Of a DNA stretch of 64,000 nt, positions 56,916 through 64,000 are shown in pieces. A model generated the notes under the pieces. The model did not search any database. It was not told the origin of the DNA and saw only the letters and a program-made list of their open reading frames with translations. Source of the stretch: Anaerolineales bacterium UBA2200 (GTDB taxonomy: Bacteria; Chloroflexota; Anaerolineae; UBA2200); contig DCVA01000043.1 in the NCBI GenBank assembly GCA_002327925.1, positions 5,948 to 69,947 of the forward strand. The letters run 5' to 3'. The position numbers were made by a program, and so were the translations under genes. Each line of letters begins with the position of its first letter. The stretch's first letter is position 1.

Positions 56916-57311
56916 CTAGGCGGCCCACATGGTTTGAATGTGGCGTATCGCCTGTGTGCTGGTGCGGCGGTATCGCGCACCATCCGCCACCAGCAGCGCC
57001 AGGATCAGCTCCTCCTGATCAACGTGAAAGAAGCGGCAAACGAGCCGGGAGCGATTCCGGTCGTAGAGGCTCACTTCGTCAAGCTCCCCCATGCCCAGTT
57101 CTGAGCGCGCGTCCTTGCTGACCTTGCGCAGCATCGCCACCATAGCCGCAGTGAGCTGCGCATCGAGCGAGGAGGGTGACGTGGCGATGGGGAGGCCATC
57201 GCTGGTAGCCAGAATGGCAGCCTGAAACGAACCCTGACGACTGAGCTCAGTAAGCACCTCTTCGAACCGGGTCGGGGCTGGCGTCTGCGCGGTGCTGTGC
57301 TCTGGTTGCAT
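56916..57311 (-). CDS. Roadblock/LC7 domain protein
   Basis: F..VL..L...G.FQAAILATSDGLPIA and AAMVA, consistent with the roadblock topology. Confidence 0.85.
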   Translation of the reverse strand: MQPEHSTAQTPAPTRFEEVLTELSRQGSFQAAILATSDGLPIATSPSSLDAQLTAAMVAMLRKVSKDARSELGMGELDEVSLYDRNRSRLVCRFFHVDQEELILALLVADGARYRRTSTQAIRHIQTMWAA

Positions 57312-57378
57312 GGCTTGTATGCCTCCATTCTGACTCGTTTGTCTCGGCATGGTGTTTCCTGGTCGATTGGCTCGTTAG

Positions 57379-57861
57379 CTAGCGTCCGAATGTCTTGAGA
57401 AAACCATTAAGGCCCCGCGCCTTGGCCGGAGTCGTCTCTTCCGAAGTCGGGGCAGCCTGTGGCTGGGGAGGTTCGGGTCTGAATGCAGGTACTGTCGGCA
57501 CCTCAGGACGGTTCTTCAGTGCGGCCTGAAGCTTGGGAATGGCGACGTCGGCTGTGAGGTTGAGCAACGGGATGCTAATGCGCGGCTCGCAGACGATGCA
57601 CAGGCATCCCCCCTGGAGCGGCTTGAGGATGACTCTGCCTCCGGTGTAGACGAGGTCGACATCGACCTTCTTGCGCTTGGATGCACGCAGGCCTGCAATA
57701 GCCTGCGCTGCGGTGTGCCCGACGACAGACAACGCATGATCGCGGGGCAGGGTGCGCAGAGAGTGCGCCAGTATGTCGCCCGTCTCATCGCAGACAAAGC
57801 AGCCATTCACTCCTACCACGTTGCTGATAGTCCGCAGGACGTCTTCCATATCCCACCCCAT
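57379..57861 (-). CDS. Roadblock/LC7 (MglC-like) protein with a Pro-rich linker and amphipathic tail
   Basis: L..I..VVGVNGCFVCDETG.ILA, DLVYTGGRVIL and NL..D (MglC-like). C-terminal GLNGFLKTFGR. Confidence 0.75.
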   Translation of the reverse strand: MGWDMEDVLRTISNVVGVNGCFVCDETGDILAHSLRTLPRDHALSVVGHTAAQAIAGLRASKRKKVDVDLVYTGGRVILKPLQGGCLCIVCEPRISIPLLNLTADVAIPKLQAALKNRPEVPTVPAFRPEPPQPQAAPTSEETTPAKARGLNGFLKTFGR

Positions 57862-57863
57862 TC

Positions 57864-58550
57864 TTATCGAAGGATGCTCGCTATTTTGGCGGCGACCAGA
57901 GCTGGAGAGGCCCTCTCTGCCAGCAGGAGCCCTACATAGAAATCCGGTCTCTCGACAATAAGGAGTCTTGCCTTTGTACCCAATGTCTCCACAACACCGC
58001 GCTCGAATGGGCCTAGGCCGAGACTTTCCCCGATCTGCGAAGCTGCGCTGCCCACAAAGACCGCAACTGCACCCTCCTTCTCAGGATCGGCTGCCATCTC
58101 AGCGGCGATGACGTTACCATCGCGGGCCACGAGAACCACGCCTGTCACGCCGTCGACTGAGCGCAACCTTGCGGCATGGTTATCGGCCTCGGTGGCAGGC
58201 ACGTCGGGCTCCAGGTCTTCTGGGAGTCCGGCAAGCTCAGTGCTTCTCTCATCGACACGCTGCATGCCTTCAAGAAGCAGCGTCGACCAGGGAGTTTGCA
58301 CCGTCTGACGAGGGGCGGGAATGCCCGGCTCCAGCTCAAACTCACCGTCTTCCCAGGCGAGCAGTTCGTGGATCACCTCGTCGCCTTCCATGTCGCCGAG
58401 TGTCATGTGGACGATGTTACCTTCGGCGAAGAAGATGACGGCCTCCTGATCATTGTGCCACACCTCAAGTCGGGCCTGGTTCATCTCGTTGCAGTTCACC
58501 GAAATGAGACTGGCCAGGCTGATATCCTTGAGTTTGCCCCTCACCGCCAT
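57864..58550 (-). CDS. DUF4388 (PatA-N-like) domain fused to a roadblock domain
   Basis: RGKLKDISLASLI, IFFAEGNIVH, LLAWEDGEFE and LLLEGMQRVDE, then LRSVDGVTGVVLVARDG. Confidence 0.85.
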   Translation of the reverse strand: MAVRGKLKDISLASLISVNCNEMNQARLEVWHNDQEAVIFFAEGNIVHMTLGDMEGDEVIHELLAWEDGEFELEPGIPAPRQTVQTPWSTLLLEGMQRVDERSTELAGLPEDLEPDVPATEADNHAARLRSVDGVTGVVLVARDGNVIAAEMAADPEKEGAVAVFVGSAASQIGESLGLGPFERGVVETLGTKARLLIVERPDFYVGLLLAERASPALVAAKIASILR

Positions 58551-58570
58551 CGGGTCACCCTCCATTCGAG

Positions 58571-59146
58571 CTACTGCAGTCTTGACGTGAGTATGCCTAT
58601 GATCGCCTTCAGTGTGTCCAATACGCCGATCCCTTGCGTCGCCACGGCCGGAAAGCACCGTGCCCCGTTGCTTCCCAGAAGACCTCGAAGAGTATCCGGC
58701 GGCAATGCCCCAGGCAGATCCTGCTTGTTGAACTGCACTACCATGGGAAAATCATCCACCCTGTGACCCATCCTGGCAACCAGCTTCTGCAGCTCAATCC
58801 AGGTCCTGAGATTGTCCGGCAAACGGTTACGTTGTGAGTCAACGACCAGTACAATCCCGTCTGCGCCCTGCAATACCAGCTTGCGCGTCGAAGCGTAGTG
58901 GACCTGGCCAGGTACCGTGTAAAGGCTGAACCTCGGCCGCAACCCCCTGATCTCTCCGAGATCCAGCTGCAGGTAGTCAAAGAAAAGAGTTCGGTCCGCG
59001 CGTGTCTTGAGTGAGATCAACTCGCTGCGCATACCCGGATTGGTACGGGCGTGGATGTACTGCAGGTTGGTTGTCTTCCCACTCAGAGCCGAGCCGTAAT
59101 AGACGATCTTGAGATTCAGTTCGTGCTGCCTGGAGTTGATGAACAT
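58571..59146 (-). CDS. mglA: MglA-family small Ras-like GTPase
   Basis: LKIVYYGSALSGKTTNL, RTLFFD, YTVPGQVHY, LVLQGADG, QFNKQDL and AVATQGIGV. Confidence 0.95.
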   Translation of the reverse strand: MFINSRQHELNLKIVYYGSALSGKTTNLQYIHARTNPGMRSELISLKTRADRTLFFDYLQLDLGEIRGLRPRFSLYTVPGQVHYASTRKLVLQGADGIVLVVDSQRNRLPDNLRTWIELQKLVARMGHRVDDFPMVVQFNKQDLPGALPPDTLRGLLGSNGARCFPAVATQGIGVLDTLKAIIGILTSRLQ

Positions 59147-59231: not shown

Positions 59232-60200
59232 TCACCTTCGCCCGTTCGTGGGAGTGGCATCGAACAGGCTATCCAATTGCGCTTGGACCTCGGTTGTCAG
59301 GTCGCTACCCAGATCTACCGATTCTGACTCGCCAAACTGTTGGGTGCCCAGCACTGCTGCTGCCCTCTTGGCGAAGATCCATACCGCGCCGGCCTGGCTC
59401 TCGTCTCCGAAAACGGTAGCCAATAGCAGATCCCTGGTGACCTCATAGGTATATATGTGGCAATCGGGACCCTGGTGGTGGCTGGCACGGAAGTCAGAAG
59501 CGTTGCCAAGCTGCTTGGCCAGCTCTGCTGCGGCGGCGAAGGTTGCGGCGATGAGGGCGCCCAGGGTCGGTAGGTGCAGACCAAAAGTCTGACCCACCGA
59601 GTCGACAGGATAGCCGGCCGCGGTTATGAGAAGGACACACCGCGCGCGCGTGTCACTCAAAAGTCGCTCGAGGATGCCATGACCCGTTGACACGGGGATC
59701 GGCGCAGGCACTTCACCTGACCCAATTTGCTGCTCTGCCGAGCGACTGCCGCCTCGAGCGGCGACAGGCAGGACATCCGCATCGCCGGCCACCGAGATGT
59801 CCGGTGCAGCCTTCCCGGTGCGAGGCCTGGTGGCACTAACCACCTCCATCATTGCTCGGACGGTGATCGGTTTGGCGAGATATCCGTCCAGCTTCCATCG
59901 CTGCGCTGTGTCGCGCAGGTCGGTGGCGCTGGAGCGGCCGATCACCAGGACCCTTGCCCCTGGGGAGGTGCTGTGGGCCGCTCTGGCGAACTCTGCGATG
60001 GCCAGTCCCGGCGTCTCCGCGTCGACCAGCAGAAGCGAGAACGTTCCGCGACGCAACATGGACCAGGCGTGTCGCCCGTCACCGGCCCACTCAACCGTGA
60101 AGCCGTTGCCACAGCTCTGAAGAGCTTCCATTACTGCAACTCTGGTCAAGGGTTCGGTATCAACAACCAGTACGGGTTTCGGCTCGTTTCGCTCTGCCAT
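59232..60200 (-). CDS. Response-regulator receiver domain fused to an MglB-like roadblock (GAP) domain
   Basis: N-terminal VLVVD..., LLLVD(AE) and LAKP. C-terminal VLLITAAGYP, LGALIAATFAAAAELAKQLG, HQG, LATVF and G.V. Confidence 0.85.
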   Translation of the reverse strand: MAERNEPKPVLVVDTEPLTRVAVMEALQSCGNGFTVEWAGDGRHAWSMLRRGTFSLLLVDAETPGLAIAEFARAAHSTSPGARVLVIGRSSATDLRDTAQRWKLDGYLAKPITVRAMMEVVSATRPRTGKAAPDISVAGDADVLPVAARGGSRSAEQQIGSGEVPAPIPVSTGHGILERLLSDTRARCVLLITAAGYPVDSVGQTFGLHLPTLGALIAATFAAAAELAKQLGNASDFRASHHQGPDCHIYTYEVTRDLLLATVFGDESQAGAVWIFAKRAAAVLGTQQFGESESVDLGSDLTTEVQAQLDSLFDATPTNGRR

Positions 60201-60374
60201 TAGCCCTCCCTGCATTGCCTTGCGCCTCTCATTAGGCTACACGCGGGTTCTGCCTGACTGCAGAACTGCAATACCGCCGGGACGTACAATCACTGACGCG
60301 CCACGGGCGCAGACGTCACGCCAGAGACCCGCGAAGCACTCCTCAACTGTTAGGACGTAGATCATCGCGTGTGG

Positions 60375-60443: not shown

Positions 60444-60472
60444 TTGACCCAGGGCACGAACACGGATATGAT
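60444..60472 (+). promoter_or_regulatory. Divergent promoter TTGACC-17-TATGAT for the hybrid kinase
   Basis: Hexamers 17 nt apart, upstream of ATG 60505. Confidence 0.7.
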
Positions 60473-60504
60473 TGCAAAACAACCTTTGCTCGGACGGGGG
60501 TAAC

Positions 60505-63500
60505 ATGGTGCTCCAGAATGCCTCCTACCTGCTGCTCTTGAGTGCGGTTCTGTCGCTTGGTCTCGCGCTTCTTGCGGCGCGGCGGCGGCCCCTGCTGTCA
60601 ACTCCCGCGCCGATCTCACTCGCTTCTGCTGCCGGGCTCTGGGCGGTGGCGGAATTCCTCTCTCGCACCAGCAGCAGTTTTGAACTCGCCTCGTTCTGGC
60701 TCGCGCTCGGCACTCTCGCGGCTTCGATCGTTCCGGTGGCGGCCGTTACTCTGACGTTGCAGTACATCGGGCGGGGCCGGCTCTTGACCCGCTGGGCGCG
60801 AATGCTCTTGCTGGTTGAGCCGGTGCTCACGGCTGTGGCCGTATGGACCAACGCCTCCACGCGATGGATGTGGATGAGGCTGGAGATGGCTGGGGAGACC
60901 AGTTCGAGTCTGGTCGCCACGCCTGGTGTATGGGGCATGGTGCACGGTGTGTACGGCTATTCACTCTGTGCGGCGGCCACGGTGCTATTCCTGAGCTGGC
61001 TGCTGCGGTCCAAGCGCTCCATCTATGGTTCTCGATTTGTCTTGCTCGTCGCTGCTCTCCTCCCATGGATCGCCAAAGGAGTGACCGCTCTGCGTTTGGA
61101 GCCGCCTGGGGCGGTGGAACTCACGCCGGTTGGGCTCTTTCTCTCGTGCGCACTCCTTTTTCTCGCACAAGCTCGGAGCCGATTGCCGGGGCTACTCGCG
61201 ACTGCCGCTCAGGCCGTGTTCGGCGGGTCATCTGACCTGGTCATCGTGCTCGACTCGTCGGATCGGCTGGCGCATCTCAACCCGGCAGCGGAGCGCGCCA
61301 CGGCTCTGGTCTCCAGGAATGTCTCCGGCCGCGCAATTGCCGATGTCATGCCCGATTCGGACCTTGTACATGCGCTGGCTGGCGGACGTCCGGCGGGAGC
61401 GCCCGTCACGATTGGCAGTGGACCTGCTTCGCGCTCCTACGACTTGCACCTGGTTCCCCTGTATGGTGCCAGCGGTCGGGCGGCTGGCCGGATGCTGATG
61501 CTGCGCGATGCGACGGCGAGAAGACGCACTGATGAGGTCATGGCGGCACTGGCCCGAACGGAGAGGCTATACATGGCGGCGCGCTCCCTCATCACCCCCA
61601 ATCAGCCCCATGAGGTGCTCCAGGTTACCGCAGAGACCGTATCTCGAGCGTTGCCAGCCAGCCGCGTTGAGGTTGTGGCATTCAACAGTGATGTGACGCG
61701 CATCGTTGACTGGGCACAGGCGCCAGCTTCTGCTGCGGGGGAGACAGAGCCAGCCATCGAAGAGACGAAGACCGGTTTGACAGGTTGGGTGATCGAGCGG
61801 AACCAGCCAATTCTGACACTCAAGGGGGTTCCTGATTCGCGGGAGACCACTGAGGAGCAGCGCAGGCGTCTGGAGAATGATACCGGATCGCAGATCATCG
61901 CTCCACTGGCGGTGGACGGACGCGTAGTGGGTCTACTTGTGGCAACTAACCGGCGCAGCGAGCGGGATTTCGCCAGGGCCGATATGCACCTCGTGACCGG
62001 ACTGGCCAATCAGGCTGTCTTTGCCTACGAGCGGGCTTGTGCAGTCTCGTCGCTGGGTGAGCAGCTATCCCTCTACAAGGATGTGGTACGGGACCAGGAT
62101 GAGCTCGTCTGTCGCCGCCAGGCTGACGGAACGATCAGTTTCGCCAATGAGGCATATTGCGCCTTTTATGGCCAACGTGCGGATGAGGTTGTTTCCTGCC
62201 TCTACTACCCATCCACGCCTCCTGAAGAGCAGACGAATTTGCAGGAGGAACTGGCGATGCTGAGTCCGGATAACCCGGAAATCAGCCTAGAATCTCGCGT
62301 GCTGGCGCCGGACGGCTCGGTTCGCTGGATGCGCTCCAGAGTGCGAGGCACGTTCGACGCGCAAGGTTGCCTTGTTTCGAGTCAAGAAGTGTCGACGGAA
62401 GTAACGCATCAGAAGGAAGACGAGAAGACGCTGCGCGAGAGCGAACTCAAACACAGAGTGCTGCTGGACAGCATTGCCAGCCCACTACTGGCGCTTCGCC
62501 CTGATTCGACCATACTGTACTGTAATGACGCATTCGCCGCCATGACCGGACGGTCGGCGTCGGATCTGAGCTCCCAGAACGTGCTGGAGGTCCTGCCGGC
62601 GCTGGCAGAGAGCACGCTATGGGAAACGTTTCGCCGGGCTCAAGAAACGGGCACAGCCGGAGAGGTTGAAGGTGAGTTGGCCGGCCGATTCTGGTATGCC
62701 AGGGTCAACCCGACGCCGTGGGGTGTCCTGGCTGCTGCAGAGGACATTACGGAGCTCGTTCAGGCTCGTGACAAGGCACTCGACGCTTCGCGTCTCAAGT
62801 CCGAATTTCTGGCCACAATGAGTCACGAGGTGCGCACCCCGATGAACGCGATCGTCGGCATGACTGAGCTGCTCCTTGACATGCCTCTGAACCCGGAGCA
62901 GCGTGACTTTGCCCATGTTGTGCTGGAGCAGACGAATAGCCTTCTGCTGATGATCGAAAACATCCTGGACTACTCCAAGATGGAAGCCGGCAGGTTGGAG
63001 TTGGAGCCCAAGGACTTTCAGTTGCTCGAGTTGGTCAGGGGAGTGATTGACCTTCTCGCGCCGATGCTTCGCGACAAAGACGTGCGGATCCTGACGCAGA
63101 TCGCTCCGGAAATCCCTTCATGGCTTCGTGGCGACTCGCTCCGGCTGAAGCAGGTCCTGGTCAACCTGGTCGGCAATGCCTGCAAATTCACGGAAAAGGG
63201 GCAGATCTTTATCCATGCAGCGCTTGAGAGCCAGGGGGCGCAACACGCCACCATTCGTTTCGAGGTAAGCGACACAGGCGTCGGTATTCCGGCTGCCGCG
63301 CTCGGCCGTCTCTTTGAGCCCTTCACTCAGGCAGACAGCTCTTCCACGCGGAAGTACGGTGGAGCAGGACTGGGATTGGCCATATCCAGACGACTCGTTG
63401 AGCTCATGGGCGGCCAGATAGAGTTGACAAGCGAGGTGGGCAAGGGCACAAGCGTGTGGTTCACTGCCACCTTCCAGCCGTCTGCTGCGCCGGATCTGGC

Positions 63501-64000
63501 AGTCCTGGAGCCAGACCTTCAGGGGTTACGTGTGCTGATCGTTGACAGTGCGCCGGACGAAGCACAAATGCTGGCCGGCCACCTCAGCTCCTGGGGAATG
63601 CAGACAGAGTCGGCGGATGGCCATGAGCTGGCGCTGCAACTTCTCGGTGACGCGGCCAGCGCAGGTCGACCCTACGACGCGGTACTGGTCGCTCACGACC
63701 CTCCTGCTGTGGACTCTTTTGTCCTCCAGAGGGGATTGGCAGAGTCGGCATCACTGGCCTCAACGAGCGTCGTTCTGCTGGCGGGACCTAGCGTTACGAC
63801 TCCAGCCGGGGCTCCGCCGCAGGACCTGTTCGAGGCCGTACTACCAACTCCGATCGAGCCGCCTGCCCTGTTCAACGCGCTCGTCGATGTGACGCTTGGC
63901 CTTCCGAGGGTCAGAACGACCCGATTGCCCAGTTCCACCAGAGGCCAGGCCCCGCGACTCATATTGCTGGCAGAGGACAACCCGACTACTCAGACCATGG
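60505..64000 (+). CDS. Hybrid sensor histidine kinase (HisKA_7TM - PAS - GAF - PAS - PAS - HisKA - HATPase - pseudo-REC - REC), 3'-truncated by the window edge; missing from the ORF track
   Basis: My translation of frame +1 from ATG 60505 gives a hydrophobic N-terminus. The H-box [54 protein letters not shown] and the terminal ILLAEDNP are all in that frame. I spot-checked the frame rather than checking every codon. Confidence 0.92.
   Translation, partial: [1165 protein letters not shown]

Follow-up and report, generated by a model that had tools for sequence, protein, structure and literature searches.

The 64,000-nucleotide stretch of DNA analysed here (the window) comes from the Anaerolineales bacterium UBA2200, contig DCVA01000043.1, positions 5,948 to 69,947, and carries a gene in which a two-component receiver domain (REC) is joined through a linker to a Roadblock/LC7 domain of the MglB type. 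The gene, called REC-MglB below, heads a tight operon of five genes on the minus strand and is followed by genes for the Ras-like GTPase MglA, a protein with a PATAN (DUF4388) and a Roadblock domain, a protein of ~156 amino acids and a stand-alone Roadblock/LC7 protein, with a hybrid histidine kinase gene diverging on its other side (Table 1). The source assembly (G000) is a metagenome-assembled draft of 2.8 Mb that is 88% complete, and the order REC-MglB, MglA, PATAN, Roadblock-fold protein, (membrane protein) and Roadblock protein is also found in four further family genomes (G001, G002, G004 and G007) and on the five independent metagenome contigs L023-L027. Residue numbers follow the longest open reading frame (ORF) of REC-MglB, which has 327 amino acids (59232-60215, minus strand). 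The orthologues place the starts at Met6 (60200) in REC-MglB, at Met37 (58550) in the PATAN gene and at Met14 (57311) in the last Roadblock gene, and the longest ORFs of these genes (59232-60215, 57864-58658 and 56916-57350) are too long at their 5' ends; with its start so placed, the PATAN gene loses an 88-base overlap with mglA.

The fusion of a receiver, a linker and an MglB-type Roadblock domain is confirmed. Pfam places Response_reg at residues 15-126 (42.8 bits, with a cut-off of 30.2) and Robl_LC7 at 182-268 (28.8 bits, against 23), the C-terminal half scores highest in NCBIfam with Thermus MglB (NF052242, residues 181-318, 47.3 bits), and a sequence search of the PDB finds that half closest to MglB of Thermus thermophilus and Myxococcus xanthus (E 6e-9). 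An AlphaFold2 model made with 15 sequences has a (beta-alpha)5 receiver, with a predicted local distance difference test score (pLDDT) of ~90, a disordered stretch at residues 132-175 and the Roadblock topology alpha-beta-beta-alpha-beta-beta-beta-alpha at residues 178-295, after which comes an extra helix (305-318) of modest pLDDT; the C-termini of the orthologues have in common an acidic motif with LF or LL at its end. The top 30 Foldseek matches in the PDB are all MglB chains, with target-normalised template-modelling (TM) scores of 0.70-0.86. A first-pass annotation, made from the letters of the sequence, had already recognised an MglB-like C-terminal domain, on which Pfam, the PDB search, AlphaFold2 and Foldseek now concur, and its linker of roughly 60 amino acids shrinks to ~45-48.

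Table 1. The REC-MglB gene, its domains and the neighbouring genes, in window coordinates.
Feature	Positions	Strand	Remarks
REC-MglB fusion gene	59232..60200	-	322 amino acids from Met6; start set by orthologues
Receiver domain, residues 13-129	59829..60179	-	quintet D19-T20 / D65 / G93 / K115; switch residue Tyr112 kept
Disordered linker, residues ~130-177	59685..59828	-	pLDDT <50; 3-26% identity to orthologues
MglB-type Roadblock/LC7 domain, residues 178-295	59331..59684	-	61-84% identity to orthologues
Predicted C-terminal helix, residues 305-318 (DLTTEVQAQLDSLF)	59262..59303	-	[DE]xLF-type motif at end
Group-1 MglA GTPase (by sequence), 191 amino acids	58571..59146	-	DRTLFFD (intrinsic Arg) and TVPGQ (Thr for Asp, catalytic Gln)
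PATAN (DUF4388) and Roadblock protein, 228 amino acids	57864..58550	-	start at Met37 by orthologues
Protein of ~156 amino acids, no Pfam match	57379..57849	-	predicted Roadblock fold, then disordered tail
Stand-alone generic Roadblock/LC7 protein, ~131 amino acids	56916..57311	-	not MglB-type by sequence; longest ORF to 57350
Hybrid histidine kinase, 1304 amino acids, divergent	60472..64000	+	ends 386 bases past the window

No part of the protein is better conserved than the Roadblock domain (61-84% identity to orthologues); the receiver, at 32-75%, evolves faster and diverges more strongly over larger distances. Among the nearest relatives the rate of nonsynonymous substitution (dN) is 0.16 in the receiver, 0.12-0.14 in the Roadblock domain and 0.9-1.4 in the linker, values that are compared on their own, as the synonymous rate (dS) is saturated (~2 or undefined) and the dN/dS ratio is unusable. 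The receiver is not decaying and is under purifying selection. An eroded receiver site, described below, in a metagenome-assembled draft might suggest a decaying or non-functional gene, or an artefact of assembly or annotation, and yet the reading frame is unbroken, assemblies made independently from several sources show the same architecture, both domains have a low dN and both fold confidently in AlphaFold2; such conservation effectively refutes this explanation. Two other candidates arose from the models and alignments and were set aside. Whole-chain Foldseek matches to the Rag/Gtr GTPases, which combine a G domain with a Roadblock domain, are meaningless at a root-mean-square deviation of ~18 Å, and an internal start giving a free MglB was considered briefly, but no Met or conserved start is apparent in the linker alignment, no test dedicated to it being run.

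The GTPase encoded next to the fusion aligns at 189 bits with the MglA proteins of M. xanthus and T. thermophilus, both of which have been crystallised, and has the marks of MglA, namely an intrinsic Arg in switch I (DRTLFFD) and, in the DxxGQ motif, Thr for Asp together with the catalytic Gln (TVPGQ). Judged by these marks, it is a genuine group-1 MglA. It is the one MglA that the assembly holds, and the fusion is the sole MglB-type protein. REC-MglB lies directly upstream of mglA at every orthologous locus examined, and the presence and absence of the two match in 10 of 10 family genomes: five carry the pair, the other five lack MglA and fusion alike, and the two genes are thus gained and lost jointly. 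The adjacency, the status as sole MglB-type protein and the perfect co-occurrence make a role as MglA's regulator well founded, and that REC-MglB is the cognate Roadblock regulator of the adjacent MglA is well supported.

Two further observations concern MglA and its partners across the Anaerolineae. In most genomes of the clade of REC-MglB the fusion is present alone, with no free MglB-like gene; a separate gene of this kind, for ~170-197 amino acids, lies near mglA, in addition to the fusion, in some genomes of the class, at L016 8890-9483 (G002), L019 5277-5870 (G025) and L020 88-597 (G028). The P-loop of every Anaerolineae MglA examined (loci L013-L027 and the window) has Ala, in the form G[SP]A[LQM][SA]GKT, irrespective of a fused or free MglB partner, at the place of a Gly in M. 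xanthus and T. thermophilus that we take to be G21, the equivalent of Ras G12.

The receiver was viewed against a wider family. The MglB half was run in an exhaustive HMMER search of 1.84 billion cluster representatives (50%-identity clusters), which gave 601 matches; among the best 150 of these at least 85, and by estimate ~88-90, are receiver-fused, with an MglB-like region that begins near residue 145-190. The receivers of all the fused representatives (~88) were aligned to CheY and the five catalytic positions were read, upon which 55 of them have the canonical DD-D-T/S-K signature. REC-MglB reads D-T-D-G-K and its genus-level relatives D-S-D-G-K. The phospho-acceptor Asp (CheY D57) is present as D65 and the Lys (CheY K109) as K115, followed by P116, just as the first-pass annotation had picked them out in LLLVD and LAKP. 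It had also called the acidic pocket in VDTE imperfect, and rightly so, as the metal-binding pair (CheY D12, D13) is here D19-T20, with E21 next to it and the second Asp gone; what it overlooked is the loss of the conserved Thr/Ser (CheY T87), which is Gly93 here and in relatives of the same genus and, in sister lineages, Asp or Ala. The receiver is thus short of two of its five catalytic residues, which makes a simple kinase-gated switch doubtful. The direct wire from two-component signalling to a Ras-like switch that had been proposed for this gene is partly supported, in that the fusion lies upstream of a real MglA and co-occurs with it, and is weakened by the degenerate receiver.

This degeneracy is shared by the relatives. 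In the clade that includes this gene (P0001-P0023), the quintet is degenerate in every representative but one, and four sister representatives (P0007, P0013, P0022 and P0023) have the phospho-Asp replaced, three by Glu and one by Ala, with the locus L014 1311-2438 listed alongside them. Glu at the phospho-acceptor site is a classic phosphomimetic substitution. In a tree of the MglB domain the fused proteins fall into large clades apart from a basal group of stand-alone MglB, and the proteins with a degenerate receiver make up a single terminal clade surrounded by canonical lineages, so that the erosion of the receiver is derived. A perspective published in 2025 (PMC12632262) counts any receiver without one of the five residues as a pseudo-receiver, and by that definition the receiver of REC-MglB, as read from its residues, classes as a pseudo-receiver that keeps its Asp.

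A phosphodonor was sought in the divergent kinase, which the first-pass annotation had named as the obvious one. Its domain order is seven transmembrane helices, PAS, GAF, PAS, PAS, HisKA, HATPase, a weak first receiver and REC, of which the C-terminal receiver is canonical. At its residues ~1020-1150 (window 63530-64000 and beyond) there is a match of 22 bits, below the cut-off, to PF24896, the 'first receiver' of plant cytokinin receptors, and this segment between the HATPase domain and the C-terminal receiver appears from its sequence to be a degenerate extra receiver. An Hpt domain is absent from the hybrid kinase, and no match to Hpt (PF01627) was found across the whole 88%-complete assembly, which also implies that there is no CheA-type chemosensory kinase in it. 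The genome has 13 HisKA-type kinase matches, twelve of them besides the neighbouring kinase, and at least one hybrid kinase.

The distribution of this kinase is also narrow. It adjoins REC-MglB only in G000, G001 and contig L023, which have the same flanking gene order and so amount to one observation, and in other members of the clade unrelated neighbours are found in its place. A search with its sensor half brought up an orthologue (61% identity) in the same genus only, and the other family genomes have paralogues of 25-33% identity or none, with or without the Mgl operon. It is proximity alone that singles out this kinase, and the evidence for it as the phosphodonor of REC-MglB is weak, the choice of an obvious donor being weakened by a genus-only orthologue and by the lack of Hpt in kinase and genome alike. 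Direct transfer from the HisKA histidine to the receiver is possible.

Taken together, we consider it moderately probable that REC-MglB is the cognate MglB-type regulator of MglA and that its receiver is phosphorylation-independent or at best an inefficient acceptor, unlikely to be a clean gate from the neighbouring kinase. By analogy with the Thermus and Myxococcus proteins, a dimer of the Roadblock domain would bind MglA-GTP and move the intrinsic Arg and Gln of MglA into place so that hydrolysis is stimulated, making the fusion a GTPase-activating protein (GAP), and the C-terminal helix would dock on MglA. The receiver, on its flexible linker of ~48 residues, would most likely act as a phosphorylation-independent interaction or targeting module. 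In the AlphaFold2 model no contact of the receiver with the Roadblock domain is predicted with confidence (predicted TM-score 0.48, with the linker disordered), so that an autoinhibitory interface cannot be proposed from it.

MglA, REC-MglB, the PATAN-Roadblock protein and the two further Roadblock-fold proteins would together set polarity for surface motility, and the Mgl operon probably has this role in the cell. The genome has a single T2SSE-type ATPase, which lies in a Tad locus (contig C7) with the genes for TadE, RcpC/CpaB, REC-ParA (TadZ/CpaE-like), TadB, TadC, a TPR protein and CpaF, and since Tad (type IVc) is the only pilus system of the genome, it is the candidate output of the MglA operon. 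On a Joint Genome Institute (JGI) metagenome contig (L024 184-9002) tadC, a TPR gene, cpaF and a DUF192 gene are followed immediately downstream by the REC-MglB/MglA/PATAN operon, and the tadC-TPR-cpaF genes of that contig are orthologous to those of the Tad locus on contig C7, with 69-77% identity for TadC and CpaF. That the Tad pilus is the output of the MglA module is speculative. The ParA-type ATPase of the Tad locus (G000 contig C7 177740-178948) itself has an N-terminal receiver (86 bits), and this would be a second possible point of entry for two-component signalling into the pilus system.

A number of observations weigh against this interpretation and have to be set beside it. Some bear on the MglB role: the 47.3 bits fall short of the NF052242 equivalog cut-off of 200 bits, in a model built from stand-alone, Thermus-type MglB; GAP activity, dimerisation and MglA binding are ascribed to REC-MglB by homology; and the position aligned to M. 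xanthus MglB G68 and Thermus A72, which we take to be on the MglA interface, is an invariant Glu in the clade. The assembly is 88% complete and may have left out a further MglB or a protein with Hpt. The gene link between Mgl and Tad is found in one neighbourhood only (L024), and a phyletic link between them was rejected, as the Tad ATPase is present in 10 of 10 family genomes and MglA in 5 of 10. Others bear on the receiver, in which D65, K115, D19 and Tyr112 are kept in REC-MglB and its four closest cluster representatives, all of which also have the conserved acidic E21 beside the missing Asp, a residue that might partly rebuild the metal site. Pseudo-receivers that keep their Asp may be inefficient yet functional, and the chemistry is not always lost when DD, T or K is substituted (PMC12632262), which leaves room for residual phosphotransfer despite the loss of DD or T. 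The kinase gene, finally, is adjacent and divergent in this genus.

The last of these points are also what speaks for a working phospho-acceptor, in which the kinase would phosphorylate D65, either from its HisKA domain or via an undetected Hpt protein, and thereby switch GAP activity or localisation, so that an environmental sensor would be wired to the MglA switch. To the retained residues and the prospect of an inefficient but functional receiver may be added its purifying selection, the placement of the kinase gene 256 bp off on the opposite strand, with the same layout in G001 and L023, and a wider REC-MglB family of mostly canonical receivers, some of which have kinase neighbours (L018, L021). 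The replacement of the second metal-binding Asp by Thr and of the Thr/Ser by Gly tells against it, as do the sister lineages with Glu or Ala at the phospho-Asp and no kinase nearby, the confinement of the kinase orthologue to the genus when the operon is far more widely conserved, a hybrid kinase without Hpt in a genome in which no Hpt was found, and the twelve other HisKA-type kinase matches. We regard this explanation as the less likely alternative.

The fusion may also not be a GAP itself. The operon encodes four Roadblock-fold proteins, counting REC-MglB, and proteins of this kind commonly form hetero-dimers, as in Ragulator, which is itself among the Foldseek matches. REC-MglB could then be a scaffold or adaptor like MglC or RomR, pairing through its Roadblock domain with another Roadblock-fold protein of the operon, and the mixed assembly, or another of its members, would regulate MglA. 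The invariant Glu at the G68/A72 position and the stand-alone MglB found besides the fusion in G002 and G025 are in keeping with this. It is the fused domain alone, however, that has similarity to MglB at the level of sequence, the three other Roadblock-fold proteins having no sequence match to MglB; an MglB-like C-terminal helix is predicted, and most genomes of the clade have no other MglB-type protein. Such a scaffold is considered distinctly improbable. The ~156-amino acid protein had no Pfam, NCBIfam or PDB sequence match and no significant hhalign match to Roadblock profiles, and it is by AlphaFold2 and Foldseek only that it is a Roadblock fold with a Pro/Ala-rich disordered tail. Between its gene and the last Roadblock gene there is, at L024 7883-8536, L025 11891-12544 and L027 7723-8385, a gene for a multi-pass membrane protein of ~217 amino acids with no family match, a gene that neither the window nor G001 has.

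Returning to the reading of REC-MglB as MglA's regulator with a phosphorylation-independent receiver, a bolder version of it may be put forward. In this clade an ancestral, phospho-regulated REC-MglB would have assumed the part of a stand-alone MglB, its receiver would in the process have become phosphorylation-independent (with the recurrent Asp-to-Glu change in sisters as a 'locked-on' state), and the pilus steered by the whole MglA/PATAN/multi-Roadblock module would be Tad (type IVc) and not type IVa. This full scenario is tentative and, in our estimation, rather unlikely; were it true, the MglA polarity switch would have a new output, and the clade would provide a natural series in which two-component input is lost from a GTPase regulator.

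MglA and MglB form the best-understood Ras-like polarity switch in bacteria, and the route by which upstream signals reach it is unclear even in Myxococcus. The REC-MglB fusions, with a receiver and a GTPase regulator on one chain, are natural test cases for signal input to this switch, and no experimental work on any of them was found in the literature. With its degenerate receiver, the gene in the window is probably not the best member for testing phosphorylation gating. Together with its canonical relatives it does offer a graded natural series, in which DD-D-T-K gives way to D-T-D-G-K and then to a phospho-site with Glu or Ala, and which could show the effect of a tethered receiver on GAP activity with and without phosphorylation. 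It is also of interest that an MglA module is present in an organism whose sole pilus system is Tad.

Among the known systems, FrzS of M. xanthus is reported to have no phospho-Asp and no Mg2+ binding (PMC1974792), and an incomplete receiver site in the context of MglA polarity is common to both proteins; REC-MglB differs in keeping its Asp and Lys, and the output of FrzS is a coiled coil and not a Roadblock domain. RomR consists of REC, a disordered region and a Glu-rich C-terminal helix that binds MglC (PMC10329633). A receiver is tied to the MglA/MglB switch both here and in the case of RomR and of FrzX/FrzZ, and the layout of REC followed by a disordered region is common to REC-MglB and RomR. 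The Myxococcus proteins, however, are separate and act on MglB/MglC in trans, whereas here the receiver is covalently tethered to MglB, and the C-terminus of REC-MglB is a Roadblock domain in place of the Glu-rich helix. The NCBIfam and PDB sequence searches gave no specific similarity to RomR, with which no direct comparison was made, and the merging of RomR-like and MglB roles envisaged in the first-pass annotation comes down to this shared layout of REC and disordered linker.

PATAN proteins beside MglA/MglB go back to Makarova et al. 2006, as cited in PMC4316618, and are known for group 1 and group 5 MglA; here, too, a PATAN-Roadblock gene comes directly after mglA. The type IV pilus motor of Synechocystis is bound by response regulators with PATAN (bioRxiv 10.1101/2021.06.11.447907), and the present genome differs in that its only pilus ATPase is of the Tad type, with no PilB or PilT, so that any link of its PATAN protein to a pilus motor would be by extension.

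With MglB of T. thermophilus and M. xanthus (PDB 3T12, 1J3W, 6H5B, 6IZW and 6HJM) REC-MglB shares the Roadblock fold, a C-terminal helix (here a predicted one) and a group-1 MglA neighbour, at an identity of ~26-34%, and differs from it in the extra N-terminal receiver and linker. The Ct-helix of M. xanthus MglB binds MglA (PMC6785124), and the helix predicted at residues 305-318 is positioned in the model as that helix is.

The architecture itself is not new, being widespread and catalogued since 2014. Wuichet and Søgaard-Andersen (2014; PMC4316618) noted Pfam architectures that combine Response_reg with Robl_LC7, with the receiver N-terminal and the MglB similarity C-terminal, and the supplementary tables of that paper do not contain the text 'Response_reg', by which the five published fusion proteins might have been identified. 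A scan of genome contigs with peptide patterns taken from REC-MglB gave no relatives, and the orthologues either carry the annotation 'response regulator [Anaerolineae bacterium]' or belong to 'Chloroflexi bacterium ADurb.Bin180'. REC-MglB has the same architecture as the fusions of 2014, and its MglB domain clusters with REC-fused proteins. What distinguishes it from them is its place in a terminal Anaerolineae clade with a degenerate quintet, in which the fusion fills the slot beside mglA as the sole MglB-type protein.

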